DNA from: Cladosporium halotolerans
Taxonomy: Eukaryota
Direction: 5' to 3'
Length of the DNA stretch: 20,000 bases
Assembly (NCBI RefSeq): GCF_011745625.1
Contig: NW_027191507.1
Coordinates: 55,565 to 75,564 of the forward strand
Positions within the stretch are counted from its first letter, which is position 1. Every line of letters begins with the position of its first letter. Under the pieces are notes generated by a model that ran no database searches, was not told the origin of the DNA, and saw only the letters and a program-made list of their open reading frames with translations. This document shows positions 72 through 20,000 of the stretch, piece after piece. The position numbers and the translations under genes were made by a program.

Positions 72-1301
72 ATGGTCAAAGCCCCCATCCTCCACTTACC
101 TCGAAGCCCCCACATCTATCACATCCCGCTTAAAATCTTGCCGATATTCAATACCAGTCGCCGACCTAGTGCGTACGTCTTTGCGGAAAGGATCAGTCCT
201 TCATTCACGCCTCGGACTCTTCATTTACAGAGTTACCAGAGGCAGATTGATCAACAACAACCAAAGTCCACGTTCTTACCAAGACGGCCAATCCCAAGAC
301 GGGCGCTACATCACACACCCAACAGCGTACATACCGAAGTCATGTCCCAAACAGTCACCGTCGACAGCATGCATGATTCAGCCACTGGTACGTGGCAATA
401 CATTGTCGCCGATCCGCACACCCTTGACGCCGTCATCATCGACCCAGTCTTAGATTACGACATTTCAACACATACCATCAGCACCCACACCGCCGATGGC
501 CTCAAGTCTTTGATTGAAGACAAGGGTTACAAAATCATCAGGATCCTCGAGACACATGCGCACGCAGACCATCTGACAGCCGCCTCATACTTGCAAACCG
601 TCCTAGAGCGGGACCATGGTTCTAAGCCGCCTATCTGCATTGGAAAGCGGATCCGTGAGGTGCAGCGCGTGTTCGGACAGAGATACGGTGTTTACGACTC
701 CGAGCTGAATGCGGCGTTCGATCAGCTCATGGATGACGATGAGGAGTTTTGTATTGGCCAGCTAAAAGCCAAAACAATTCATCTTCCGGGCCACACACCA
801 GATCACGTCGGTTACCTCGTCGAAGGTAAGCAATGTCAGCAGCAAAACAAACGACTTTGGAATTTGCTAATACAAGGCCTCGCAGACAACATCTTTTGCG
901 GCGATTCGGTGTTCAACGCCGACCTAGGCACCGCGCGCTGCGACTTTCCCGGCGGCAGTGCAAAAGATTTATACCACTCGACTCGCAAGTTGCTGAGCCT
1001 GCCCGACAACTACAAGATTTGGACCGGCCATGACTACCCGTCTAACGGCCGGATGTGTCCAGTCCCGTACATGAGCGTGGCTGACCAGAAGCAGCGCAAT
1101 CGCTACCTTTCAGACATTGTATCGGAGCAGGATTTTCTGCACATGCGCACCCAACGTGATGCACAACTGAAGGAGCCGAAAATGCTACACCCGTCGTTGC
1201 AAATCAATATTCGCGGAGGACGGCTACCCGCTCCGATGCCATCTGGTGAACGAACCTTAACATTTCCTATTCGACTGGAGACCGAGCACTGGGGAGTTTG
1301 A
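72..1301 (+). CDS. Persulfide (sulfur) dioxygenase-like metallo-beta-lactamase-fold protein (ETHE1/Blh/SdoA family); exons 72-825 and 886-1301; alternative start at ATG 342
   Basis: Motifs TWQYIVAD..DPVLDYD, ILETHAHADH (HxHxDH), PGHTPDH, GDSVF, GTARCDFPGG, GHDYP and PSLQINIRGGRLP. Removing the in-frame 60-nt intron joins VGYLVE-DNIFCGDS. Length is 389 aa from ATG72 or 299 aa from ATG342. The N-terminal extension is R/S/P-rich and acid-poor. Confidence 0.92.
   Translation: MVKAPILHLPRSPHIYHIPLKILPIFNTSRRPSAYVFAERISPSFTPRTLHLQSYQRQIDQQQPKSTFLPRRPIPRRALHHTPNSVHTEVMSQTVTVDSMHDSATGTWQYIVADPHTLDAVIIDPVLDYDISTHTISTHTADGLKSLIEDKGYKIIRILETHAHADHLTAASYLQTVLERDHGSKPPICIGKRIREVQRVFGQRYGVYDSELNAAFDQLMDDDEEFCIGQLKAKTIHLPGHTPDHVGYLVEGKQCQQQNKRLWNLLIQGLADNIFCGDSVFNADLGTARCDFPGGSAKDLYHSTRKLLSLPDNYKIWTGHDYPSNGRMCPVPYMSVADQKQRNRYLSDIVSEQDFLHMRTQRDAQLKEPKMLHPSLQINIRGGRLPAPMPSGERTLTFPIRLETEHWGV
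826..885 (+). other. 60-nt in-frame spliceosomal intron in the dioxygenase gene
   Basis: GTAAGC donor at 826, GCTAAT branch site at 866-871, CAG acceptor at 883-885. The read-through peptide GKQCQQQNKRLWNLLIQGLA interrupts the conserved motif. Confidence 0.9.
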
Positions 1302-1537
1302 ATAGCATCGCAAGTTTTGCCATTTCAACAATATGCGCATAGCCAGCATTTATCCATCAACTAGCAATGAACACTGTATGAGTATCACCAACTTCATAAT
1401 TGTGCGCCATGCTTGTCTTTTGCCACTGGGAGAAGTTGTTCTGAACTGTTAAGAATGAACTCTCGGGAAACATGCCACAAAGGAAGGAACATAGTGTAAT
1501 TTGATCTGCAGTAGTCAACAAAGATAATAGTATTTGA

Positions 1538-2532
1538 TCACAACGACAGCCACGACCCTAGGCGAGGTTTCCAACCACCGCCTGCATGCGGATCTGTCTG
1601 GTCCAATCGCCACAACGTGGTCTGCACTCGCAAATCTGCGAGAAATTCTGCTTCTGTGGATTTTGCGTGCTTATTGAGAGCCGCACATTCGGCGACAGAG
1701 TCGCGCGGCTTAGATGAGGTCGACGGGCTACCATCTCCCTGCTCTCGCCAGACGCGGGTGTTGGCAGGGAGGGACAAGACCCGTTGCATAGAGTTCCAAG
1801 CGTCACGATGGTGTGATGAGTCTTTCGACGGATCATCGGCAGCGCGGAAAGCGACGCTCTCGAGGTCTGCATGCGCCAAGTCCTCTCTCAGAGTCGCGAT
1901 TGAGTGTGCGCCAAAAACATCGTTGCCCACTACATAAGCGCGGCGATGGGGTTTACCAAAGCCTGGCATGTGCATGCATTCCAGAGAGAGCCAGCCCAAA
2001 ATGATTTCGCCATCATTAAGGCCAGCGCGGAATGTTGTCTAGAATGAGCTACTAGCACCGTATTTGCGCTGCCACAAAAGGTCGAGGCCAGAGACGGTAG
2101 CTTCGTTACAGAGCTGCGGTGCATATCCTGCATTCTGAGATACCAAGCGGCGGATAGGCAGTGAGGGTTCGCAACATGTGTCTCCAGGATGTAGTCGACA
2201 ATAGAGCTGCGCTCTTTCATTACAGTAATGATGGCGTCGGCGGCGCTTGTTGACATGGCAGCCGGGTCAGCACAGGTCAGCACAGCGGTCGCGGACGGGA
2301 TCGAGCACTACACAGTGCATTGTAGTAGCATCAGCTACAATGTATTGCCATGTGTCTGTAGATGCTGCGTATACGTTATGGACAACCGACGAAGTATCGA
2401 AGGCCGCGGTCGGCAATTCTGAAGGTACGCCGGATGTCGTCAGCTTGGAGAAATGGTCGAACAACAAGACTTGATAAGCCTTTTGGCCGTGGATGAGGGG
2501 TATACAAAGGTCTTGATCAGGCCCAGAATCAT
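1538..2532 (-). pseudogene. Disrupted, catalytically degenerate paralog of the persulfide dioxygenase (start uncertain, ATG 2532 or upstream)
   Basis: Pieces across frames align to gene 1: TDTWQYIVADATTMHCVVLDPVRD; YILETHVANPHCLSAAWYL; GYAPQLCNEATVSGLDLLWQRKYG; HMPGFGKPHRRAYVVGNDVFGAHS; NSMQRVLSLPANTRVW; SVAECAALNKH..EAEFL. Lesions are a 10-bp tandem duplication (2265-2284), a frameshift at ~2128 and an in-frame TAG at 2041-2039. Confidence 0.85.
2265..2284. repeat. 10-bp tandem duplication GGTCAGCACA x2 causing a frameshift in the paralog
   Basis: Seen directly. Removing one copy restores ...DRCADPAAMSTSAAD... Confidence 0.9.
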
Positions 2533-2927
2533 TTGCAAGAAATGAATTTTGTCGCGTGATGTGAAGGGGGAAGAGAAAACGACGAGGAGACGGGAGCGAT
2601 GCAGAATGAAGAGTACAAACATTGACGAGCGAGCCCCCGCGTGCATGTAGTCGCCGATGTTTCCGAGTCCCCGGCCACTCGAGTCCGTGCTTCATGATAT
2701 TGATCGGTATAGCTCCCTCCCGGGACCCATTGCAAATCGTTGCGTTGACGGAAGATTCCATAATTGAACTTCAAGACGAATGTATCTGTTGGCCCCGTAC
2801 GCCTTTCTCGCTTAGTCATGTTCATGCACCAGGTTGCATAGGCTGCACACACATAGATGCGAGAAGGGAGGTCACGAGTACGTACGGCGATTTAGTTAGA
2901 TATCCAGCGTTACTATACAGATAGCTG

Positions 2928-4760
2928 CTAGAGTATGTTGTTTGAAAAAAAATTACTTGACATTTCATCTGTCAAAAAAAGATCGAACCAAAATGGGTTA
3001 TTGCCCATGCTGTCGCTGTCGGCCATGGCACTGTCTCGGAAAGAAGTAGCGTGAGGCGACAAGGCATGCGTCGAGAAAATGGTCTCGGCAACGACTTTGA
3101 GACAACGCGCTGAATTTTGAGCGAGCGTGTATCGCTCACCTAGCCTTTGCAGTGCACCGAGCATCAGAACGACTCTGTCTCTATGCTGTTGGAGGCAGTC
3201 TAGCCCGCCACGGGGTACATGGATGGATCCTGCCGCGAGTTGAATAACGCATCCTAACACCAGGCCACAAATGAAAAAGGGCGAATTTCTGTCTAAACGC
3301 CATGGCACAGTAGCGAGGTTCGCCAAATCCTTTGAAGCGGCGATAGCTTTGACAGTGTGGTGTCTGGAAGTAGGCGCCAATTGTATATAGCCGTTCGCAC
3401 AGGCGATGTCTTTTGCAGACGGCACCGTGTCGGGCAGGTCGCTCCTGGGGAAATGAAGGAAGATGGTAGCGCACGCAATGATGCAGCGTGCTTCGAAAAG
3501 CATCAAATCGACATCTCCCGAAGGACCAACGACGTCTCTATATAAGAACGGGAGATTGTAATCCCAACCTGCAAGCGCGTTATTTAGTGCCTGGATGTTG
3601 TCAGGAAGAGCATCGTCCTGGGAAGCAATAGTCAGAACTCGGCTGACAAGCGGATCGCATCTATGCGAAAGCACAAAGTTGAGAAGCTGGCTTGCGGCTC
3701 CGGTGAAAAAACTCGATTCTCAAACGCTCGGAGTATAGGAGGGCTTGGATCACATTCACCTGCTTCATAGGGCCTGGGCACATGGTAGAAAGGGGAGCGT
3801 CTTTGCGCAGGCGGTTTGGAAAATCGGACGGCGGTGTATCGCCGCGAAATAGATGTCGACGGTGTACAGCTCCCACCATGTCCTTCGGAGACTCTCTTCC
3901 ACCAAAGAGGAACAAGCTGAATTTTCTCGCGCGAAGGTCGGCTCCTGCATGCCCAAATCCAACACGATGCTGGCAGCACGAGTGACACACGCGGCGGCCT
4001 CTGTGGGCTGCTGACGGGCGTGAAAAATGATAGCGTACAAAACCAGTGCTTGGACCCTAGAGGGCTTCTGCTCGTGAGGCTCCAACATGGCAGAAGAAAC
4101 TGCCTCTTGGAGCCCTAAGTCTCCAGGCATGGACGTCGCATAGTGCTGTCCAGCGAAGCATACGACCAGATCGAGGTAGTGCGGATACTGTTGCGCCGCG
4201 TAAAAAGGCCTAGGCACAAGGAAGGGATGTGCGGCAAAGAAATGGATATAGAAGAGGTTGAGCGGGCGGTCGTGGTCGGAAGGATTGAGTGCCCACGTCG
4301 ACGGCACGGCGGGAGTTAAGGATGGCAAAGGCAGTTGTGGATTGCTGAGGCATCCTGGGACAGTGGATGTTGACGAACAAGAAGCGGCAAGGGCCGGACA
4401 GGCGGCGAGGGCGGTATGGGAGGTGTTGCTGCTGGCGGACCGTGCAGATGCGGCTGTGGGCGGCGTCGGTGGCGCGGTGGTGTCTGCAGCGGGACCAGCT
4501 CCTGCCGCAGCAGGCAAAGGTCGGTGATTGCGAGGTCGATGTGGAGAAGCATTTGCATGTGCCGGATCGCCTCGCCTGCCGCGGCGGCCAAGTCCACGGC
4601 GGGAAGCGGTGTAAGAGCAGGCAACAGCGTCGACAAGGCAGCGGCCACAGGTGGGCGACGCGCCGTCGCACTTGAGATGTTTGCGTCGACACCCATCACA
4701 CGCCAGCGGCGCCGGGCGAGCGGTGGCGTCAGAGTTGGCAGCGGCGGTGGCGGTGGCCAT
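2928..4760 (-). pseudogene. Zn(II)2Cys6 transcription factor with fungal middle-homology region, interrupted by two frameshifts (~3768 and ~3650); alternative ATG at 4787
   Basis: ACDGCRRKHLKCDGASPTCGRCLVDAVAC binuclear cluster, LNLFYIHFFAAHPFL and EESLRRTWWELYTVD. The protein continues LPCAQAL / YEAGECDPSPP..FENRVF..SFSTLCFRIDAIR / LVSRVLTIAS only by switching frames. TGA at 3767-3765 ends the first frame. About 610 aa if repaired. Confidence 0.85.
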
Positions 4761-6091
4761 GAAGGAGAAGATATCGATAAATTGCATGTCCAGCCTTTGA
4801 GAACTCCAGCTTGTCGCCGGTCTTGTGTTGTGAGAGGACAGCCCTGAGCAAGAATTCGGCGACTGGGACTCGGCGACTACAAGTCTCCACAAGCGGTGGC
4901 GTCAGCTCATCGCCCGTTGAGGAACAGACCCCGAGAAAGATCGCCGACAGCAACCTTCAGTCCCGAAGACGCCGGATGGCTAAGATCAATCAATTTACAT
5001 CTCGTGCTTCAGCTCCTGCAACTCCCGCACTCGCGTCGCAGCAACTAATTACCTCTTGGGAGCGCACACATACCATCGAGCCTCCAAACCAAGCCACGCA
5101 TCATCCCTCGCGAAAATGTGCAAAAAGGCAACCTGTGACACGTGCGGTCGGTCTCTCCTACCTACTCTTCACTCCGCCCGATTCTAACGCCTTTTGTGTC
5201 GCAGGCAAGCGATCCTGGTGGGGATGCGGCAATGTATTACTGCTGCCAACTCTCTACGCGACAAGCATAAACTAACGTGTCGGCAAGCACATCCCAAGCA
5301 TCATGGATTCCGTGCAGGAGCAAGACAGATGCAAATGCGGGCCCAGGGTCTTTGCGGAGGGCAAGGAGTATCCTCCGAAGGCCGCTCAAGCCGATTGACT
5401 GTAAGGAGGAGGATAGAACGTTTGGGAGGCTCCGATAGAGCATCTACGTACCACTTTCCCACCCACGTCTGTTGCCATTTGGAGTCCAGATCATACCTGT
5501 ACACCCTTCAATCGTCTCCTTCATAGACATGGAACCAACCTTGGCTATCGCCATCAAATCACCAGCGTTTCGAATCATGCTTGCACAAGCTCTGCTAGAT
5601 GAAGCGAACCAACCCAATCCTTCATTCTGTTCTATCGCAGGTCAGGTTTGCTCGTCGCAGAATTCACATACGCGCGGCAACTGGCCGGAATGTTACACAG
5701 CTAGTCCGGACACACACTCTTGGAGCCATTAGCCATTAGGAATGGTCGGGCGACAATGAGTGCACACTGAACTTTCGCCTTACCTCGGCGAGCTCAACAT
5801 TAATATTCTGTAATCGCCGTCGAAGTCGGCGATCAAACCCAAGGTCTTGACCTTGCCTTAGGGAGGTAGACTGTGACATGGGTCGTGCAAGACAAGGTCT
5901 TCGATTACAAAGATGGTTCGCCACCGGCACTATATGAACGACGAGTTCCGTCCGCAGCGTTTCCAAGTCCCCCTATCCGCCACAGAAACCGTAACATTAA
6001 CAAAGCCAGCGCGAATTGTGCCTGTTAGAAACGCCGCCACTACCGAGCCGTTGTCACAGCGTGTTGACGCGATCTTCCTAAATCATTCAAC

Positions 6092-7165
6092 ATGCTATCC
6101 GGATCCATATCCGCCGCTTGCACAGGAGCAATCTTCGGCGCCTCACTCACAGCATCGGGTGTCTATCTCCCTTTTGTGATAATCGGTCAATTCCGGCTGG
6201 CAGACTTCCACATGTTCCACGTCTTTGCAACAGCCATGGGCTCAAGCGCGTAAGTAGCAAGTCAAACCGTCGCCACGAGCTCGCAAACGTTGTTTGCGCG
6301 TGCGCTAATTTTTCACTGCTCCAGTATCGTCATGCTCGCATTGGATAAACTCGACATCATCAAGCGGCCGGTACGAATGAACTCGACGCTAGATCTTTGG
6401 TCACCATACGACGCAAATCTGGCTGGCGGCGTTCTAGTCGGAATCGGAATGGCGCTGTCAGGGGCATGTCCTGGCACGGTCCTGGTTCAACTTGTCCAAG
6501 GAATACCATCTGCAAAGGCCACAGCCTCCGGAGCCTTGCTAGGTGCTGCACTTTACATATGGTTCAAAGAGCGGCGCAAGAAGGCTCAACTTGGGGCTGA
6601 AGGGGAACGAAACACCTGCAGAAAGACGATATCTGACGTGTCCAAAGTCCCTGAATTTGCCGTATACTCATTATTTGGGGTGGCGATCGCGGTGATTTTG
6701 CGATTTACACGAGCTGGGAGCGAGCAATCTTTGGCATTGCCCGTGGCCGGTGGCTTTCTGATCGGCTGCGCGCAAGCCGTGTCGCTGCTACTCACTCGCA
6801 GCCCTCTCGGTGTCTCGACCGCCTACGAACACCTTAGCCGACACATCCTCAATGCATTGCGCGGAGAGATTGGAGCAAGGCCAAGCCTTCCCTCGAAACC
6901 CATCATCTTTTCCCTTGGTATCGTTGCCGGAAGCATTGCCTTGCTTGCGAGCAATCCCAGCTTCGGCAACTCAGCACACGAGTCTGCTGTACCGGCATGG
7001 CAGGCTTTCATTGGGGGTGTTGTCATGACTTTCGGCGCCAGGCTGGGGGATGGCTGCACTTCTGGACATGGATTGTCTGGCCTCAGTGCCATGTCTGCTT
7101 CAAGTCTTGTGACAGTGGCTGCGATGTTTGGTGCTGGTATCTCGACCAGGGCGTTGATGGCATGA
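6092..7165 (+). CDS. YeeE/YedE (thiosulfate/sulfur-compound transporter, TsuA/PmpAB-like) integral membrane protein; exons 6092-6249 and 6325-7165, 332 aa
   Basis: ATG 6092 opens MLSGSISAACTGAIFGASLTASGVY... The intron is 6250-6324 (GTAAGT, GCTAAT at 6304, CAG). Family motifs GGVLVGIGMALSGACPGT and GGVVMTFGARLGDGCTSGHGLSG are present, with many Gly-rich hydrophobic segments. The spliced frame is intact. Confidence 0.9.
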
Positions 7166-9883: not shown

Positions 9884-12225
9884 TTGGGGCCTCGAAGTGG
9901 CGACGCCCGTTATTACAGACAACGGTCGTGGAGTCTGGCACACAGCAGCCCGTACACAGCAGATAGTACATTCGCATCTGACAGCGCGATCGGCCACGAA
10001 GACGGATTGGAGATCGCTGCAACGAACGCTAACGAATTGTTTCACTACGATCCGCATTACAGAGTGCTAGTCTGCCGGTATCATGGGTATGCCGTCAGGA
10101 ATCTGACAATGCATCTTAGGCTGCAACACAAAGTCCGCAGCTCTCAGAGGCCAGCAATAGAGAAGGATTTCCGGGATTGTGAACTACTGGAGCCGGCACA
10201 GGTCTCAATACCGCCGCCGCTGCACGCACCGCTTAACTGGCTCGTTGCGCCGACCCGCGGATATCAGTGCGACGAAGCCGGATATACCAAGATCTTGAAG
10301 AGCCGAGATGGAATCAGGAAGCACTGTTATAAGGAGCATGCATAGAGGTCGACCGCCGACGATCCGGAACACTGGCACGTACAAACGATATTTCAATCCA
10401 AAGCACATCGTCGGTCTTCCGTCGTCGATTATCACGACAAGGTCGTACGGGAACTAGAGCAGTCGACGAAAGGCATTAGCCCGCAGAATCAGCAAATTCT
10501 AGAGTAGTGGGATCGTCGCCTAGAAGAGCAAGAAGAGGTATCGCAGCTCGCAGAAGCCGTAGTAGCAAAAACCGATCATATACGGTGGTTCAGATGCAAT
10601 AAATGGCCGTATCATCTGGCAGAGAGCAATTTGCGGCAGTTGAGTCGAGCGTGTCGCATGCCGAAACGGGATGAAGAAACGCTTAGAGACGTACTACCGA
10701 AGAAGGCGGAAGCTTTAGTTGAGGAGTGTGTGAAAGGATTGCCGATACTTAGGCACGTTATCAGACGGTGGTTACGAAGCGTAAAAGCATCCGAGCCGGA
10801 CGTACGGCCGTTGGCAAAACTGCAGAACGAAGACAGTCAGAAGCGGTATGCCGTCTATATAACCCGATTCATTTGCTATACGCTACGAAGATGGAAAAGC
10901 CGCGAAGAAGTCGAAAATGCGGGCTATAGAGGGCCAGTGGAGGTGAAGGGGTTGGCGAGAATGAAGATGAGGATGAAGACGAAGATGAGGTCGGGGACGG
11001 GATTGAAGATGATGTCGAAGACGCAATAACGGTCAATCTGACAGGCGGACCGGCAAGTGGCGGCATACGAGAGGCCGACACGATGAAAGAAGCTCGAAGG
11101 CTACATCCGTGGCCGAACGGCTTACACGCGATCGTTGGTCGGCTTTGGAGAGCACTATCTCCGTCGTGTTACTTAGAGTCACCGGAAATGGTCATACTGT
11201 AACTCTTCAGGCACGTTCTATTTAGCACGTAGGAGTTAATGTCTTCGAACGCCCGTTACTGCATTTATAGCTATACTAGGCCTCGTTAAAGACATATATA
11301 GGCTACGAGAAGGGAACGATTTTTCGTTTATACTAGCGGGAATCGTCTACTATTATCGAGTGCTAGGCGTTAAGATTATTCTCCTAAAGACGTTTCGTAG
11401 GGGAGAGACGGCGGAAGACGACGAACGCTTTCTTAAGTGCGACTTAAGTATCTAGCTAACGGAGTATTTAGTCCGATAGCGGAAATTATTAGCTTATTAT
11501 TATATAGTCGATACTATACGTTTAATTACGCGAACGCCGGTACGATATCTTAATCCCTAGACGCTAGTATAATTATATATAGAGGGTAGAATATCCCGCT
11601 CGCGAGATTTAAGAAGCTTATCTACGTAGTAGTAATAGAGGCCGAGAATATACTATAATAAGAGGTACTCTAGTAGGTCGATACTAAGCGATTTAAACTC
11701 CCTATAGATATATTAAGGGACGACGTAACGTATAATTATAGAGACTAATCGTTTCTATTCGTTTCTAAATAATACGCGTAATAGACTCGATATACGTATA
11801 TAGGTACCCGTATAGATATTAGCGTACGTTAACGGTAGAAAGCTTCTATAGGGAGAGCGCTAGTAACGTTAGGAGATACGTAAGTATCTACGATAGATAA
11901 AGTATTTTCGAGAACTACTATTACTCTACGTATACTAGACTAGAAGATAGCTAGTATAAGGTACCTAGATATCCGTCCGGTCTAAAAACGGTTATATATA
12001 GGACCGAAACGTTTTTACGATATATAGGTATATAGCGGTCGTAATACGATATTATAAAAGCGTATCGTAGTACGATTAACTAAAGGTCGTCTCGCGTTTT
12101 CTCGCGTAGCGAGTCGGATAGCTAATAGCTAGGTATTTAGTATACGTACGTCCGCTATAAGAGTTACTTTCTCTTTAATCGTAGCGATAAATATATTATA
12201 CCCGTAGTAACTATATTTATAATAG
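9884..12225 (+). pseudogene. DUF3505 (OrsD-like) N-terminus plus the conserved middle domain of fungal telomere-linked/RecQ-helicase-associated mobile genes; RIP-mutated and 3'-truncated
   Basis: ELFHYDPHYRVLVCRYHGYAVRNL..HLRLQH and GYQC..IRKHCYKEH Zn-finger-like motifs, then IRRWLRS..RPLAKLQNEDSQKRY and an acidic tract. RIP-damaged reads follow: PLLH.IAILG, YLANG.FSP, DRNVF..AVV.RYYKS....KVV.RFL..RVG.L...YLVYVRP. Stops are TAG/TAA at expected W/Q codons. No helicase motifs were seen. Confidence 0.75.
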
Positions 12226-14034
12226 GCGTTTAAAGGAACCTCCTTTATTTGGATTTCTTATAGTACTATACGGCGGTTAGAAAAGCGGGGATCGGTACTA
12301 ACGTTTTGGGAATATATTTAGATCGTAGATAGGCGAGAAGGTATATTATAATAGTTTCGGTAGTAATCGCTCTAGAATATAATCGTCGAGCTAGCCTAGT
12401 TAGTAGTCGGGTTATACTTCTTAAGCTAAGGTATACTAAGTACGATTAGGTAGTATACTAAGCGGGTAAGAAAAAGGGGTACTCCCTTTTCTATATAGTA
12501 TCTGGTTTCTAGGTCGTAGCGGATATAGTAATAGATAATCTAAGCGTCTTCGCTCTTATCGGCGAAGCTATATAGCTTAAACGGACGGCGGAGGGTATAG
12601 ATTAGTAGACGATACTCTTTTACCTACGTTTAATCTATAAAGGCGTCTCCCTTATAACTAGTATCGAGGAGGGAATAAGTTTTAATAGAATAGTATTCGG
12701 AGGTTATAGTAATAAATAACTTTAGTAAACGGGCTCGTTAATACTTAGCTTTAACGGGTATCTTAAAAATCGATATTCTTAAGATCTTAATAAACGGGTA
12801 GTATTACGGGTTAGGATAGGGTATAGTAACGGGTATAGAAGTACGTAATAATAATCTACGTTATCCTAGCGCCTAGAGACGACTTTAGCTAGGCTTATTT
12901 CGTTTTCCGAATACGACGTAGGCGAGGAGTATTAGTCGCGAGCGATATTATATAGGCTAATTAGAGAAGGCGATAATTCGGACTCCTCTTATGAATTAAT
13001 AAATTAATAGATAGATAGTACACTAATTAATTATTATCTTAGAGACTATATAACTTAATCAAAAATTATACTAATTACTTATACCTTTAGGTTTAGCTAA
13101 TTCTAGACTTTAAATCGATAGTATACTTTATAATATTAAAACGTCGATATTTATTAGTCTATTTAAGTAGCTTATAGAATCTTCTTAGAAAACTTTTATA
13201 ATACTATATCTTAAGCGCTTTTTATTTAAAAGGCTACTATTTATATTTTCCTTTAAATTAACTATATCGATATTAGTACTATAGAATATAGACTCGGATA
13301 AAATATCTATACTATAAGTCCGATAGTATAGTATTATAGTTATACTAGATATAGTAAGGCTTACTTAGGCTTTATATTAGATCGCTCTATATAAGTTTTT
13401 ATCTTCTTAGTATTATAGGGAATAATTAATATAGTTATCTAAAGCGTTCTTCTAATTAGCTACGCTCTATATACTACTACTAAGTACCTAATAGACTATA
13501 GTTAAAAATACTACTATACTTAGTAGTAGCTAGATAGATACTTATAGAAGGTAATAGACCTTAGATAGTTACTTTTCTTTAGATTATCTTTTATAGTACG
13601 TTAGTATAGATATATAGTAGCCTCCGTAGGTAATAATAATATAAAAAGTTACTTAAATCTCTTCTCTATCCTACTTAGTAAAGTATTAACCTAATAATAT
13701 CTTTAGGTTTATATTTATCCTATCTCCTATCTACCTTCTATACTAGTAGATAGTTCTAACCTTAGCCTACTTTACTACTACCCTACTACTAAAAGGTAGT
13801 TATCTAGATAGCCTCTAGCTTTATATAAGTTTCCTATAAGAGAACCGTTATATATTTAGTATAGCCTCTATAGATAAATAACTACCTTTAGATACGATAG
13901 CCTAAATCGAACTCTTAAATAAACGCGATTCCTAAAAATTAAACTTTAGTTTAACCTCTATTAGCTTTAGTAAATTTCTACTAAGAGTAAAGATTATAAT
14001 TATATAGAGTATATACGTAAAGTTATATAGTAAA

Positions 14035-14245
14035 TATTATCTATAAAAATATAGTGGTAAGTTCCTATAAAAGGTAATAAAGGATTATCTTAAAGACTAA
14101 TCGCTACTTTATAAGCTAATCCTCTACGCTTTATAGGTAAACTATATATAGCTACTAAGCGCCCCTTAGGCGCGGCGTTATAGGTTACGTAATTAGGTTA
14201 CGTAGCCTAGGTCCTAACTTTACTTCCTTATACTCTTCTATAATA
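14035..14245 (-). repeat. Putative 3' LTR (~210 bp), preceded on the minus strand by a polypurine tract at 14260-14246
   Basis: The minus strand reads AGGAGAGGAGGTAAT then TATTATAG (RIP form of TGTTA...). The plus-strand end reads TATTAT at 14035. A duplicated GGTTACGTA motif (RIP form of GGTCACGTG) and a TATA-like run lie inside. Boundaries are inferred without a second copy. Confidence 0.45.
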
Positions 14246-14569
14246 ATTACCTCCTCTCCTAGATAGATATCCTAGCTACCTAATAGGTACTTTTATAGCG
14301 CCTCTTTATCGCCTTAAATACGCTTCGTACTTCTATACGTTTCCGCCTAGTTACTAGGTAGTATTATATAGTTACTTAGAGTCCTTAACTAGCGCTCCTT
14401 CCTTAGGTAGGTAAATATTATTATTAGGGGTAATAAAGGTAGGTATAATAGTATCGCGAGTTCTCCTTACTAGTACTTCTCTTTCTCTCCCTATATATAT
14501 ATATATACTAAGCGCCTCCCCTCCGCGCCGCCTTTAGCTTATTAGCGCCGCGCCTACTTACCGTATTAT

Positions 14570-15409
14570 CTACGTAAGCTTCTTTTTCTATCTATAGTAG
14601 TAGTATACGCGCTACTATACCTATTTATAATAAGTATATTCTATACCTTAACGACGACCTTACTAGTAAGTTTATAAAACGCGCTCCGCGCGCGTAGCGC
14701 TAGTACTTCCCTTACTCTAAGCTAGCTAACTATCTTTATAGCTAACCTATACGATAGTATTTTTAGTCTTATAGCTAAAAAGTACTCCCGCTACGCCTTA
14801 TCCTATAAGGCCTATATAGCGGTTAAGCCGCCCTACTTTCCTACGCTTATATACGCCGTATACGCTTATAAGGCGTATACGCGTACCTTAGATAACGACG
14901 ATAACGACCTAGCGGCCCGCGTATAGGCCGCTATTAACGCTAGCGAGGCCGTCTATAAGGACTTACGGTCTTTTAACTATAACCGTAATAAGGTCGCTAG
15001 CGACTACCCTACGCTACGTAAGGTACGTACTACTACTACGCCGGTAGATAGTAATAGTATCCTCTTACTAAAGGTATAGAGCTTACGCCGCGGCGTCCTA
15101 GCGTTTATTAAAGTCGGTAAGACTATAAGTACTTTCCTTACTCTCTCTTCGCTTCTTAAGCGCTTTATATACTTACTACTTTCGTAGATCGTTTAGGATC
15201 GCCTAATCCCTAATAAGGCCTCTAAGGCTATTAACGCTATTAACGAGGCTCTTAGGCCGGACGCCCTAATAGGGGCCTTCCGGCGTAAGTCCTTATTACT
15301 ACTACTACGCCGTCGCTATACCTACGCTTTATTAGAGGGCGAGGATAAAGAGGATAAGGATAAGAATAAGGGAAGAGAGGAGGGTAGTAAGAAGGAGATA
15401 GAAGAGTAA
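14570..15409 (+). pseudogene. Antisense accessory gene inside the retrotransposon: three exons (..14665, 14742-15124, 15188-15409), inferred six-Cys motif and acidic tail; start not resolved
   Basis: Intron 14666-14741 has GTAAGT, GCTAAC at 14725 and TAG. Intron 15125-15187 has ATAAGT (RIP form of GTAAGT) and TAG. The spliced frame is continuous except for RIP-type TAG/TAA codons and ends EGEDKEDKDKNKGREEGSKKEIEE-TAA (15407-15409). Confidence 0.65.
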
Positions 15410-15589
15410 TACTTTCTATCTCTCTCGCCTACTACGCGCCTTTATAGCGCCTTTATTTTTTATATAGCGTATCTACGCCTTAGCTACGCCGCGCTTTTAG
15501 CGGTTTTCCTCTTTTTTCATTTTCCTATTAGGCCTTAGCCTATAAAAAATAAATAAGCGATTTTCCCTTTTTTTATCTTTATTTTCGTC

Positions 15590-18500
15590 TTCTTACTTAC
15601 GTTTCGCCTATATATTATATACGCTTATTAGCTATTTCGTATTTTTATAGTTCTCTATAGGCTTCTAGCTTAAGTACTCCTCTAGCTAGCCTTTCTACTA
15701 TACTAAATACTATAGCTATTCTTTTCTTTTACGTAAATCTTTAATTACCTCTACTCTCTATTTATCTACTACCTCTATAAAGAATATAAGATACGTTAGT
15801 TCTTCGCCTACTCGCTACTACTATAGCTTTAATAGCGAGATATAGAATACGTTATAGATCTTATAGGAGCTTAGGAGTACTAGTCGGTACGCCTATAAGC
15901 CGACTACGTCTTTTGCTTAAAACGGTCTAATATACTAAGCCCTTAGCTTCCTTTTTACGCTTAGTAGATATAGATTTTTCGTTAGTAGAAGTACCTTCTC
16001 CCTAATCTTAAAGTATATTAGCTTTAAACGCTAGTTCTAATACTTCTTCTATATCTCTTAAGCGTCTTACTAACGTAACGCTAGCGTCTTATACGTTTTA
16101 TATAATTATCTTATACGCTTTATAGCTACTTATACCTTCTCCTCCTATAGTTTATCCTAAATTAGCGCCGTTCTAATCTCTAGCGACTAGCTATAAAGGA
16201 GCTCGAAAGGGCTTATATAAGTCGCCTAGTATACGCCGTTATTTGCCGCGAACTCCGCCTACGCTAGTATATCTAGCTATATCTCCTACTTTTCTAAGTA
16301 ATAGTAACGTAGGTATTACTTAAGCGTTTAGTTTATCCGCTTAGTCTACCTATCTATCTAAGGATAAAACGCTATACTTAGTCTATATTTTACCCTCGCT
16401 TTTGAAGCGAAGTTACTCTAATACTAGCTTATAAAGAGCGATTCCCTATAAAAAAGGATTCCTTTTAGTATATTAAATCTTTAGACGATATTATCTATTA
16501 GTAGCTTCGTAAGCTCTACGCTATCGTAGCGCTTAGTAGTCGCTATATATACGTTTATCTTTATATATCGATCGATAATTACTAGTATTATATCTACTAC
16601 CTAGTTCGCTATCTTTCCTAGTAGAAGATTAGTAATAAAGTCTAGCGTAATTTCCTCCTAAGGATAGGAGGGTAGTACTAATACCTACGCCTTACTATAG
16701 GGCCGGTATTACCGCGACTTTACTACTTAATATATCTAGTAAGATACTACGCGCTCTATAATATCCTTCCTTAGGGACGGCTACTAGTACTTACGGTATA
16801 GTAATACCTTCGTTTTATCTCGACTAAAGTACCCTATAAGCGGGTTATCGTAGTAGATTCGCATAAGCTCTATTCGCGCCGCGCTATCGTCGGGTATAAA
16901 TAGCGCTCCCTTATAATACTAAAGGGCGTTATATTTTACCTACGCTTATACGTCCTTTACGCGTCGACTACTTTCCTATAGCTCCGCGAGTTTATACTAG
17001 CTTCTACTCTATAAAATCTATAATACCTCTATTAGGCCGCGGTCCGGATCGTTAAACGGATCCTTATATTATACCGCTAAGTTAACGACTCGCCTTATAA
17101 TTAAGATACGGTCCTATATAGTAGAGTTACTAGCGTTATACTAGAGACTCTCTTACGCGTACGCTCTATATACTAGGGATACTACGGCCTCCTCTTTCTC
17201 CTATACTATTAGCTTCTTCTATAAGGTCGGGAGTAAGTTATAAGGCGCCTACTCTTTACTATTATAGACTAGACGCCTTAATAGGACGTCTACTAGATTC
17301 GACGGGCCGCTTTAGTATTCGATTACGAAATTAAAGGAAGCTAGGAACGTTACCTACCTAGCTTAATAGCTATTAAATTATTTTATACCTATAAAACCCC
17401 TTAGGTTATTATAGTCTATAAGTACTTATATCCTATACGTAGCGCCTTAAAGGTACTAGTAAGACTACTTAAATCCTTCTACGATCGCGAGTAACTTACT
17501 ATCGTACGTCTTATAGTTATACTTAGCCGGATTTAACTTTCTTAACTAGAAAGTAATAGGGTACTAAGTCGTATACTATTTACTAGCGGGGAGTAGTTAT
17601 AATAGTATCGCGACGATTACGAACTACGAGGCGTCCGTCTCTATCTAGAGTTTCGCCTTAGGCTTACAATACCTAAGGATAGGCGCTTCTATAAAGGCCG
17701 CTTTTACCTCCTAAAACGCCTCCTCTTCGCTTATACCCTACTAGAGCGGACCCGACTTTTTACCCTATTTCGCCTCTTTCGTAAGCGCTATTAGCGGCGC
17801 TACGATCTTAGAGTAGTTCTTAATAAATCTTCGATAGAAATTAGTAAATCCTAAGGATACCTATACGTCCTAGAAGCTCTACGGTATCGGCTATTCTTTA
17901 ATAGTAGCTACCCGGCGCCTATCTATTAAGACGCTAGTTATACCTACGATATACCCTAGGAACTCTACTTCTATCGTAAAGAAATAGTATTTCTTTTAGT
18001 TCGTATAGAGGGCGAGTTTCCGGAGTCTCTTTAGTACTATACCTAGGTCTCGCTAATACTACTCTTTCGTATCGCTATAGATAAGGATATTATCTAGGTA
18101 GACTACGTAGTAAATATCGATAAGCCCTACTATAGCCCGATTAATATATACTTAAAACGTTACCGGAGTATTAGTTAGCCTAAAAGGTATTACCTTATAT
18201 TTAAAGTAGCCGTAGCGTATACGAAACGCCGTCTTCTACTTATCGCCGCGCTTAATCGGGATTCTATAGTAAGTATCCTTAAGGTCTAATACTAAGAAGT
18301 ATATAGCTCGCCTAAGCCTATTTAGCGTTTTACTAATTAGAGGTAAGAGATACCGATTCTTCCTTATAATAGCGTTTAGCCTTTAGTAATCTATATAGAG
18401 ACGTATAAAACTATCTTTCTTTAGTATAAAGAGGATAGGCGCCCCTACTTTACTAGCGCTCCGCTAGATCTACCCGTTCTTAAGCGCCTACTTAAGGTAC

Positions 18501-19100
18501 TAGTAAAGGACCTCTAACTCTCTTATAGATAGGTTATAGAGAAGCTAGAAGGGTAGCTTCTACCTTAGCTCTAAGTTAATCGTATACTCTATACCTTTAG
18601 GGAGTAGGAGGCCTACTATATCCCCTTTAGTAAAGACGTCGCTAAATTACTAGATCTCTACTAGTAGCTCTATAGCCTCTAGTAGCGAATCCGTCCTTAT
18701 AGTATAGACGTAGGGGGCTCCCTTAAAGTCTTACTAGAACGCGCGTATATTCCCGTACGCGTATCGCCGGTATCTTACCTAGTTATATAAATTACTATAG
18801 GTCTCTCTTACTATCTACGGCAACTTTATACTTCCGTCGCTATAGCTAGCTAAAGAGGACCTTAGCCCCCTTTAACTTATAGCTAAAGAATATATCGTCT
18901 ATTAGGTACTATATATCTATAGAGTCTACGATTTATATATATAGCTTATATATACTATAGTATAGCCCCTTCTCGCCTCTAAATTCCTCTATACTTAGTA
19001 GAGGTACTTCGACCTTCTATAGGTTATATTATAACGTTAGGCGCTATAAGACGATATTTATCTCTACTACGTTATCTAGGATATAAGTAGCTTCTATACG
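15590..19100 (-). pseudogene. pol: pol polyprotein (protease, RT, RNase H, integrase, chromodomain), RIP-inactivated
   Basis: Protease-like ILDNVVEINIV at ~19050-19085. RT: GAPILFILKKD..RLYIDY, KTAFRIRYGYFKYKVIPF.LTNTP and VYLDNILIYS (YLDD at 18100-18089). RNase H: IETDAS, RKLNPAKYNYKTYDSKLLAIVE. Integrase: ITLDFIT, SIAFYP*IDR*TKRIN. Chromodomain: YLV**KG*LEEYLS*KP at ~15620-15760. Confidence 0.92.
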
Positions 19101-19189
19101 CTATCCTTACGAGTCGACTTCTCCGCGTAGGGTCTTTATAGGCTAGGAGCTTCCCGCCGTCTATATAGACTCCTAGCGAACCGCCCTAA

Positions 19190-19660
19190 CGCTAGCTAGT
19201 TAAGCTTAGGTTAGTACCTATAACGGCTTCGCTTAGGGCGCGATAGCGGTTACCTTTTATATCGCTATCTACTTAGCTCCTACCTACTTATAGTAGTTAG
19301 GATAGCTACTCCTAATATAGCCCTACTCCCGATAGCCGTAGTATTTAACGCCCTTCTACGGTTAAATCTTCCCGGCGGCTCCTTTAGGGGTAGCCTACGC
19401 TACTAGTATATTACTTAGGCGCGTAGAGAATAAATCCCTTTTCTAGAACCTAGGTAGTAGTACCTCGCCGGCGTCTTTCTTAAGGGGCCGGTTATTATAG
19501 GGGAGTAACGTCTATACTAAGGCTCTATATAGTATTAAATAAGTTCGATACCGTAAGGAGGAGGTTTACTATTTAAGTCCGCTTAGAAGGAGATAAAGAG
19601 CTAAGGCCGTTCTACTATACGCGGGCCTAGCCCGCGTATACTCCTAGGGCTTACCCTTTT
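19190..19660 (-). pseudogene. gag: gag C-terminal fragment with zinc knuckle
   Basis: 19343-19302 reads Y-Y-G-Y-R-E-*-G-Y-I-R-S-S-Y, the RIP product of C-x2-C-x4-H-x4-C. Confidence 0.75.
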
Positions 19661-19827
19661 ATACTATAATAATGCTTTAAGAAGATACCCTTATAAATAA
19701 TAGTCTTATATTTCTAAAACTTAGATATAATACTATTTATTATTTAAAATTAATAGTAGTAAGCTTTTAGCTTGATTTTACCCTACTAATCTAGTAAATT
19801 ATAAGGTTCACTTTAAACCTACTAATA

Positions 19828-20000
19828 ATGATAATAATGATGATTTTCATTCAGGCTATGCACGGAGACCGTATGAGCCGTCCCTAATCGCTACCTAACA
19901 TTACAACGAAAGTCGCCTTGCACTCATGACCCGAGAGATTAGCCAACACCTCACCCGACCCTCATGTCCGAAGAACGAGACAGTCTGCCAGTCTGGTAAA
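19828..20000 (-). repeat. Right arm of the long inverted repeat (partner 9433-9605); runs off the window edge
   Basis: Its reverse complement matches 9433-9605 at ~90%. It lies just outside the RIP-saturated block. Confidence 0.92.

Follow-up and report, generated by a model that had tools for sequence, protein, structure and literature searches.

Within a 20,000-nucleotide stretch of the genome of Cladosporium halotolerans (contig NW_027191507.1, positions 55,565 to 75,564 of the forward strand; hereafter the window) lies a disrupted gene on the minus strand, at window positions 1538-2443. When its identity and history are taken as a whole, this gene is very probably a dead copy of a conserved family of proteins of about 300 residues that is derived from persulfide dioxygenases (PDOs). 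The family is shown to descend from type II PDOs, with the fold kept and the iron site and the ARCDFPGG loop lost, and belongs to Cladosporium-like Dothideomycete fungi. Substitution patterns show that it was long constrained by purifying selection and that the window copy broke late, on its own branch. Intact family genes lie directly downstream of a gene for a Zn2Cys6 transcription factor, which is also broken in the window, and the intact protein may be a regulatory partner of that factor.

The pseudogene and its relation to gene 1

The pseudogene lies close to a gene for a canonical PDO-like protein, here called gene 1, with which it was compared.

1538..2443, minus strand: pseudogene of a ligand-less protein of the PDO (metallo-beta-lactamase) fold, 77-80% identical over aligned residues to the intact relatives P0002-P0004
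2443-2276, 2262-2128, 2125-2042 and 2038-1541, minus strand: coding pieces of the pseudogene, followed by a stop codon at 1538-1540
342..1301, plus strand: gene 1 (exons 342-825 and 886-1301), apparently intact, encoding a type II PDO-like protein of 299 residues whose best solved relative is 4ysk (E 3e-27)

A tblastn search of spliced gene 1 against positions 1301-3000 (a 1.7-kb target) gave a single collinear match (E 5e-15, 24% identity over 258 residues), which bears out the proposal of a first-pass annotation, made from the letters alone, that the pseudogene can be aligned to gene 1 along the whole domain. Most of the motif replacements listed there were also recovered. The first motif has changed from ETHAHADH in gene 1 to ETHVANPHC, with a one-residue insertion, PGHTPDH has become PGFGKPH, WTGHDY has become WREQGD, and the ARCDFPGG of gene 1 faces a stretch that cannot be aligned. 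The pairing of GDS with GAH did not stand: the third motif aligns best with FCGDS of gene 1 set against FGAHS of the pseudogene, so that the Asp ligand is replaced by His and not deleted. The pseudogene is one residue shorter than its relatives at GEIILGW (IIT(L/F)GW in the relatives). Searches of Pfam with its four pieces gave no family at E 0.01 or better, PF00753 (Lactamase_B) included.

Disabling lesions

Four disabling lesions were found, each of them missing from all nine aligned orthologous loci, or, for the start codon, from all eight loci that cover the region.

2441..2443, minus strand: lost start codon, CTG, where 8/8 loci have ATG (relatives M-TTSGVP, window K-L-TTSGVP)
2265..2284, minus strand: 10-bp tandem duplication, with GGTCAGCACA twice on the plus strand (copies 2265-2274 and 2275-2284), missing from 9/9 orthologous loci
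2126..2128, minus strand: point at which 16 bp have been deleted (about 2127/2128); the 16 bases are kept in 9/9 orthologous loci
2039..2041, minus strand: in-frame nonsense codon TAG at an invariant Ser (FSTTIR), where 9/9 loci have TCN

The duplication shifts the reading frame and leads to a TGA at 2267-2269. The deletion removes the codons for xSIxQ directly after RMQ and causes a second frameshift, which brings reading back into the first frame. As the insertion of 10 and the deletion of 16 bases cancel in phase, the first and last parts of the gene share one frame and the ETHVANPH segment lies in another. Only three lesions had been counted in the first-pass annotation, and the start codon had been placed at an ATG at 2532; the gene begins instead at 2443, and the ATG at 2530-2532 lies in a different frame. 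Neither this ATG nor the in-frame ATGs further upstream (2761 and 2695) can be taken as the start, since the relatives begin at the position of the CTG. Introns were rejected as a cause of the frame changes, because the insertion is of 10 bp and the 16 missing bases are coding in all nine orthologs. Repeat-induced point mutation (RIP) was likewise rejected as the origin of the nonsense codon, in that the change from TCG to TAG is C to A and the gene region has a GC content of about 50-54%.

The run that is probably the source, X1, was also assembled independently (a Logan contig of depth 28), and over positions 300-2800 that assembly has no differences and no gaps; errors of the deposited assembly therefore do not account for the lesions. 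A second run, X2, gave short identical pieces only, and a third, X3, which belongs to another study, gave two 151-base contigs (2165-2281 and 2320-2470); among the sequencing runs matched, none is an RNA run and none came from a close but different strain. The first of the X3 contigs is exact to 2165-2281, so covering 7 bases of the duplication's second copy, and carries 34 unrelated bases beyond 2165 at a depth of 2. This divergent end may have arisen from a rearrangement or as a chimera, or may belong to a different allele.

Intact relatives and loss of the iron site

With the broken frame read through as the query, and X set at both stops, 34 relatives were found at E 0.001 or better, the best of them 303-304 residues long (E 1e-128 to 4e-111). 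An alignment of 26 relatives, 49-82% identical to its first member (P0002), has 44 invariant columns, and the invariant stretches of the family include WQY, HC..DPVRDRC, YILET, LSAAW..R, PQLC, RKYGA, FST.IR, PGF, RRAY, FGAHS and TRVW. The window copy is collinear with the family and nests among P0002-P0004. None of the 26 aligned relatives has HxHxDH, PGH or GD. The existence of intact relatives without the ligands, on which the first-pass annotation had staked its reading, was thus confirmed by these 26 proteins together with 15 loci that have open frames, and the canonical motifs are retained in none of them. None of the 34 relatives has a precomputed Pfam assignment.

In hETHE1 the iron ligands are described as His79, His135 and Asp154, a triad of two His and one carboxylate (PMC4383860). 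The corresponding columns were tabulated in 27 sequences, the window copy included. The first His is kept in 21 of the 27 and is replaced by N in five and by Y in one; the second, the His of PGH, is Phe in 25 and Ser in two; and the third, the Asp of GD, is His in 26 and Tyr in one. The relatives have also lost the His of GHD and, from the HxHxDH motif, the second-sphere residues His, Asp and His. This loss of ligands suggests that the intact protein is non-catalytic.

The fold has been kept. P0002, modelled with AlphaFold2 from the 26-sequence alignment, reaches a predicted local distance difference test (pLDDT) score of 74.6 and a predicted template-modelling (pTM) score of 0.75, and the model takes the alpha-beta-beta-alpha form of the metallo-beta-lactamase fold. 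Foldseek matched this model best to 4ysk, 9g8t and 4efz (E about 5e-15, template-modelling score about 0.6) and then to hETHE1 and PDO-rhodanese fusions; a profile of the family found the same PDO entries of the PDB at E 7e-19 to 5e-15. Conserved core strands (TxTxQY..D, DPV.D, LET and PG) are common to the family and the type II PDOs. The region that corresponds to ARCDFPGG is variable in the relatives and of low confidence in the P0002 model, with pLDDT below 50 at residues 191-207.

The ligand-poor clade appears to be wider than the close relatives, as judged from representatives clustered at 50% identity. A profile search of 1.84 billion such representatives gave 1291 matches at E<=0.001, 49 of them at E<=1e-30. 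Among the best 70 of the 1291, 44 have no HxHxDH string, among them every one of the 26 listed after P0004, and some are fragments; two named members of the 44 come from Meristemomyces frigidus and Baudoinia panamericana. In a FastTree phylogeny of 68 sequences the ligand-poor proteins all lie on one side of a long branch that leads from the canonical forms (H-H-D-H, H and D), and partly degenerate forms branch earlier, with the root assumed and branch support not considered. The clusters of this fold found in the ESM Atlas were all canonical ones, from fungi and bacteria.

One possibility is that the family is not a dead enzyme but a re-purposed one, or a sulfur carrier, for example one that relays persulfide or binds sulfite or thiosulfate, and that it acts through its invariant Cys, His and Arg. 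Residues C44, R51 and C54 are invariant or nearly so at former active-site positions (DPVRDRC against DPVLDYD), and are joined by F165 and R170-R171 (PGFGxPHRR), by H183 in place of the Asp ligand, and by R100, R128, K129 and C114; the genomic context of sulfur metabolism is also consistent with such a role. However, these residues form no recognised catalytic constellation, neither the four window pieces nor the 34 relatives fall into a Pfam family, and the strictest genomic linkage is to a transcription factor and not to an enzyme or transporter. A re-purposed enzyme or carrier is accordingly regarded as somewhat unlikely.

Selection and age of the inactivation

A scan of metagenome contigs gave 15 family loci (L001-L015), with open frames in all 15 over the part covered. 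Ratios of nonsynonymous to synonymous substitution rates (dN/dS) were calculated by the Nei-Gojobori method for the 46 of 105 locus pairs with dS between 0.02 and 1.5. In 45 of these, with dS of 0.16-1.31, dN/dS was 0.10-0.28, in agreement with the earlier expectation of values below 1 among intact orthologs; one near-identical pair had a dN/dS of 0.38 at a dS of 0.024. These figures are for intact loci only, and between the window copy and relatives for which DNA is available the synonymous sites are saturated, with a proportion of synonymous differences (pS) of 0.72-0.80.

On the protein tree the terminal branch of the window copy is 0.147, and those of its sisters P0002-P0004 are 0.113, 0.191 and 0.132. 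The window copy is changed at five of 85 columns conserved at 90% or more, one of the five being the stop, and each sister is changed at two of 86-87. A branch within the range of the sisters, together with so few changes at conserved columns, indicates that the breakage is recent relative to the age of the family. The first-pass reading of a gene long under selection and then recently inactivated is therefore upheld by both the dN/dS values and the branch length.

Linkage to a Zn2Cys6 transcription factor

Upstream of the pseudogene, on the same strand, lies the gene for the transcription factor.

2928..4760, minus strand: Zn2Cys6 transcription factor, its frame disrupted by a pair of frameshifts (about 3765-3770 and about 3650) that compensate each other; its orthologs are unbroken

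Each ortholog of the factor is encoded by one unbroken open frame, of 581-602 residues. The window copy leaves its frame after LPCAQAL (about 3765-3770) and returns to it at IDAIR|LVSRVL (about 3650), and the 46 codons between the two frameshifts align to ortholog coding sequence in the shifted frame, for which reason an intron was rejected as the cause. The genome's own model of the factor, P0116 (331 residues), ends at the first frameshift. A paralog of the factor, P0075 (538 residues), which is 52% identical to the window copy, is encoded in the same species on a different contig of 1.16 Mb.

Among the relatives, the family gene lies directly downstream of the factor and on the same strand in all ten informative loci, and the window has the same layout. 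The factor is complete in each of the seven loci with room for it (L006-L011 and L013), and in three more (L002, L012 and L015) its C-terminal tail stands at the locus edge, upstream of the family gene. The spacers between factor and family gene are 336-747 bp. Consecutive locus tags are found for family gene and factor in two named genomes, those of Neophaeotheca triangularis (g3838/g3839) and Cladosporium fusiforme (Q7P37_006285/006286). In ten pairs of a family protein and a factor, the longest contig recorded for the two has the same length, an indirect sign of linkage. Other neighbours of the pair vary among the relatives, and include genes for a mitochondrial carrier, a DUF1275 protein, a PhyH-like dioxygenase and a RasGAP, with a second Zn2Cys6 gene in L009 (the regions concerned are 2428-6337 of L008, 4576-5626 of L013, and the downstream parts of L011 and L013).

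The expectation that the family would remain linked to the cluster thus held for the regulator, in the ten informative loci and the two named genomes, and for the PDO gene in a subset only. A gene-1 ortholog stands tail-to-tail with the family gene in the window and in L001 and L005, which are two of the six loci with at least 1 kb of downstream sequence; in the other four (L009, L011, L012 and L013) it does not adjoin the family gene. In N. triangularis the PDO gene (g3837), g3838 and g3839 are consecutive.

A shared promoter element

An 8-mer, CGGCGACT, occurs four times in the window against an expected 0.70, a count that was reached in one of 200 shuffles, and all four copies lie upstream of genes of the cluster (gene 1, the pseudogene and the factor).

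156..163, minus strand: CGGCGACT, about 180 bp upstream of gene 1
2649..2656, minus strand: CGGCGACT, about 210 bp upstream of the start position of the pseudogene
4857..4864 and 4871..4878, plus strand: two copies of CGGCGACT in the upstream region of the factor

In the 15 related loci there are 21 copies in 92 kb, against a rough expectation of about 3 on both strands. Most of these copies precede the family gene or the factor, at distances that are conserved among the loci. In L001-L004, L007, L008 and L013 the element precedes the family gene by 183-231 bp, and in L007, L008, L009, L010 and L011 it stands upstream of the factor; one further copy lies inside gene 1 of L001. An extended form of the element is TCGGCGACT. 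The sharing of this promoter element suggests that these genes are co-regulated, and the element is a candidate binding site of the Zn2Cys6 factor.

The 8-mer common to the promoters of gene 1 and the family gene also bears on the idea that the family protein is a dead subunit which forms a heterodimer with the true PDO encoded by gene 1. Dead subunits within the metallo-beta-lactamase fold have reportedly been found, and CPSF100 pairs with CPSF73 and INTS9 with INTS11 in the manner that such an arrangement would follow. PDOs are dimers, as described for hETHE1 (PMC4383860), and the tail-to-tail position of the two genes in the window, L001 and L005, with the consecutive tags g3837 and g3838, would suit a shared complex. 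A dead PDO subunit is nevertheless decidedly unlikely: the gene-1 ortholog is not adjacent in four of the six loci where adjacency could be seen, and the two proteins have only 24-29% identity. Moreover, the PDO is open in the window while its paralog is dead, which indicates that the enzyme is not obligately dependent on the paralog.

Possible role of the intact protein

The intact family protein may be a non-catalytic regulatory partner of the adjacent Zn2Cys6 factor, a predicted role that is put forward as tentative and is given rather less than an even chance. The proposal is drawn from the ligand-poor fold that is under selection, the strict tandem arrangement with the factor, the shared promoter motif and the joint inactivation of the two genes. 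The family protein would act on the factor as a co-activator or anti-activator, or as a sensor of sulfur species, and would in this way adjust how strongly the PDO and transporter genes are expressed, by way of the shared promoter element CGGCGACT. If one member of the pair were to break, the other would be freed from selection. In the window both members are broken and the enzyme and transporter genes persist, suggesting that the pair is one unit that can be dispensed with without loss of the pathway genes. The window can be seen in this respect as a natural experiment, with the pair broken and the PDO and transporter genes open.

Several points weigh against a regulatory partnership. The near-invariant His in place of Asp, together with the invariant Cys and Arg, would allow a different metal site or new chemistry, and the first His is N, Y or another residue in six of the 27 sequences. 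As the loop equivalent to ARCDFPGG is gone and is poorly modelled, a sensor of glutathione persulfide cannot be argued for from retained substrate contacts. Adjacency and co-regulation are equally compatible with the family gene being a mere target of the factor; the loss of both neighbours could reflect decay of a region that borders an AT-rich repeat tract, or could be explained by redundancy with the 52%-identical paralog of the factor.

These last points come together in the proposal that the family gene is simply one that the factor controls, that its protein does something unconnected with regulation, and that the joint loss came about through regional decay or redundancy. The region does adjoin a 9-kb AT-rich tract without an open reading frame of 60 residues or more, the paralogous factor is present elsewhere in the same species, and promoter motifs are a sign of co-regulation and not of binding. 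On the other hand, all ten informative loci and both named genomes keep the tandem pairing, at protein identities of 49-82% to P0002, while the other neighbours (PhyH, Mito_carr, DUF1275 and the second Zn2Cys6 gene) vary. Gene 1 and the transporter gene, in the same region, are also unbroken. A role as target alone is considered unlikely on this evidence.

A more specific form of the regulatory-partner proposal is that the family is the signal half of a fungal sulfide/persulfide switch, in which the remodelled pocket (Cys44/Cys54, His183 and the Arg cluster) detects reactive or oxidised sulfur. The sensor would control the factor, and the factor, acting at CGGCGACT sites, would drive its own gene along with those of the PDO, the transporter and the sensor. 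Such a switch is speculative and on the unlikely side, but if real would be a eukaryotic counterpart of the bacterial persulfide regulators of the CstR/SqrR/BigR type, built on the fold of the enzyme itself. How sulfide and persulfide are detoxified has been worked out well for bacteria and for mitochondria. Searches of open-access papers and preprints on fungal PDOs and on dead enzymes of the fold found nothing on a family of this kind or on the sensing of sulfide or persulfide by filamentous fungi, and the factor, the ligand-less PDO paralog and the shared promoter element together make up a concrete candidate circuit for fungal sulfur-species sensing.

Comparison with known systems

The family resembles the type II PDOs (SdoA and Blh; 4ysk/4ysl of P. 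putida, 9g8t of PA2915, and 4efz) in its fold, in its length of about 295 residues and in its best profile and structure matches. It differs in that at most one His of HxHxDH is kept, the His of PGH is Phe, the Asp of GD is His, and the His of GHD and the ARCDFPGG loop have gone. With these motifs and ligands lost, and with no Pfam Lactamase_B match, the family is not a PDO member in the enzymatic sense. To gene 1 and its fungal orthologs (PF00753) the family is related by homology along the whole domain, by adjacency in some genomes and by the CGGCGACT promoter element, whereas identity is only 24-29% and gene 1 has all the ligands and an intron.

Enzymes that have died and become partners of Zn2Cys6 factors are known from Gal80 and Gal3 with Gal4, and from QutR and qa-1S with QutA and qa-1F. 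CPSF100 and INTS9 offer a likeness of another kind, in that they have the same superfamily fold, with degenerate metal ligands, and are kept under selection; they are, however, beta-CASP subunits of RNA processing with an active paralog, whereas the present family is PDO-derived and single-domain, and has its tightest link with a transcription factor. The family would be a PDO-derived addition to the few known dead enzymes of the metallo-beta-lactamase fold.

A likeness in genomic setting is offered by AflS (AflJ) with AflR. AflS is described as methyltransferase-like and as working through AflR (PMC8395729), and the same source places this enzyme-derived protein, without its catalytic motif, in a gene cluster next to the Zn2Cys6 factor specific to the pathway. 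AflS, Gal80/Gal3 and the QutR-type partners are of other folds and serve secondary metabolism or sugar pathways, in contrast to sulfur detoxification in the present case, where a partnership with the factor is proposed. Two kinds of protein are already familiar, the dead enzymes of this fold and the partners of Zn2Cys6 factors that derive from enzymes, and a PDO-derived one tied to such a factor appears to be a new form.

Neighbouring genes

Gene 1 has all the motifs expected of a PDO (HAHADH, PGHTPDH, CGDS, ARCDFPGG and GHDY). Its exon 1 matches Pfam Lactamase_B (PF00753) at 28.7 bits, and the solved structures closest to gene 1 are 4ysk, 4efz and 9g8t (E 3e-27 to 3e-24), of which 4ysk is titled in the PDB as SdoA of Pseudomonas putida and 9g8t as the persulfide dioxygenase PA2915. 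SdoA and Blh are described as type II PDOs that use glutathione persulfide (PMC5702731). The intron of gene 1 (826-885, 60 bp, GTAAGC...CAG) has no counterpart in the pseudogene. The annotated protein P0295 of C. halotolerans (299 residues, named a hypothetical protein by NCBI) is identical to gene 1 over the first exon. A second contig of X1, 6.1 kb long, matches gene 1 at about 80% over 393-449 and 1065-1103, indicating that at least one more canonical PDO-like paralog is present elsewhere in the genome.

6092..7165, plus strand: gene for a Sulf_transp (YeeE/YedE-type) transporter, apparently intact and with a single intron, GTAAGT...CAG (about 6250-6322)

A Sulf_transp gene lies near the family gene in the window and in L006 and L008. 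Between the factor and the transporter gene of the window there is a small Cys-rich open frame (MCKKATCDTCG...) at about 5116-5400 on the plus strand. From about 11000 to 20000 the GC content is 25-44%, with no open reading frame of 60 residues or more listed past 11081, and the tract has the look of RIP-degraded repeats. An OrsD-like open reading frame (Pfam PF12013, E 1e-11) is located at 9884-10345 on the plus strand.

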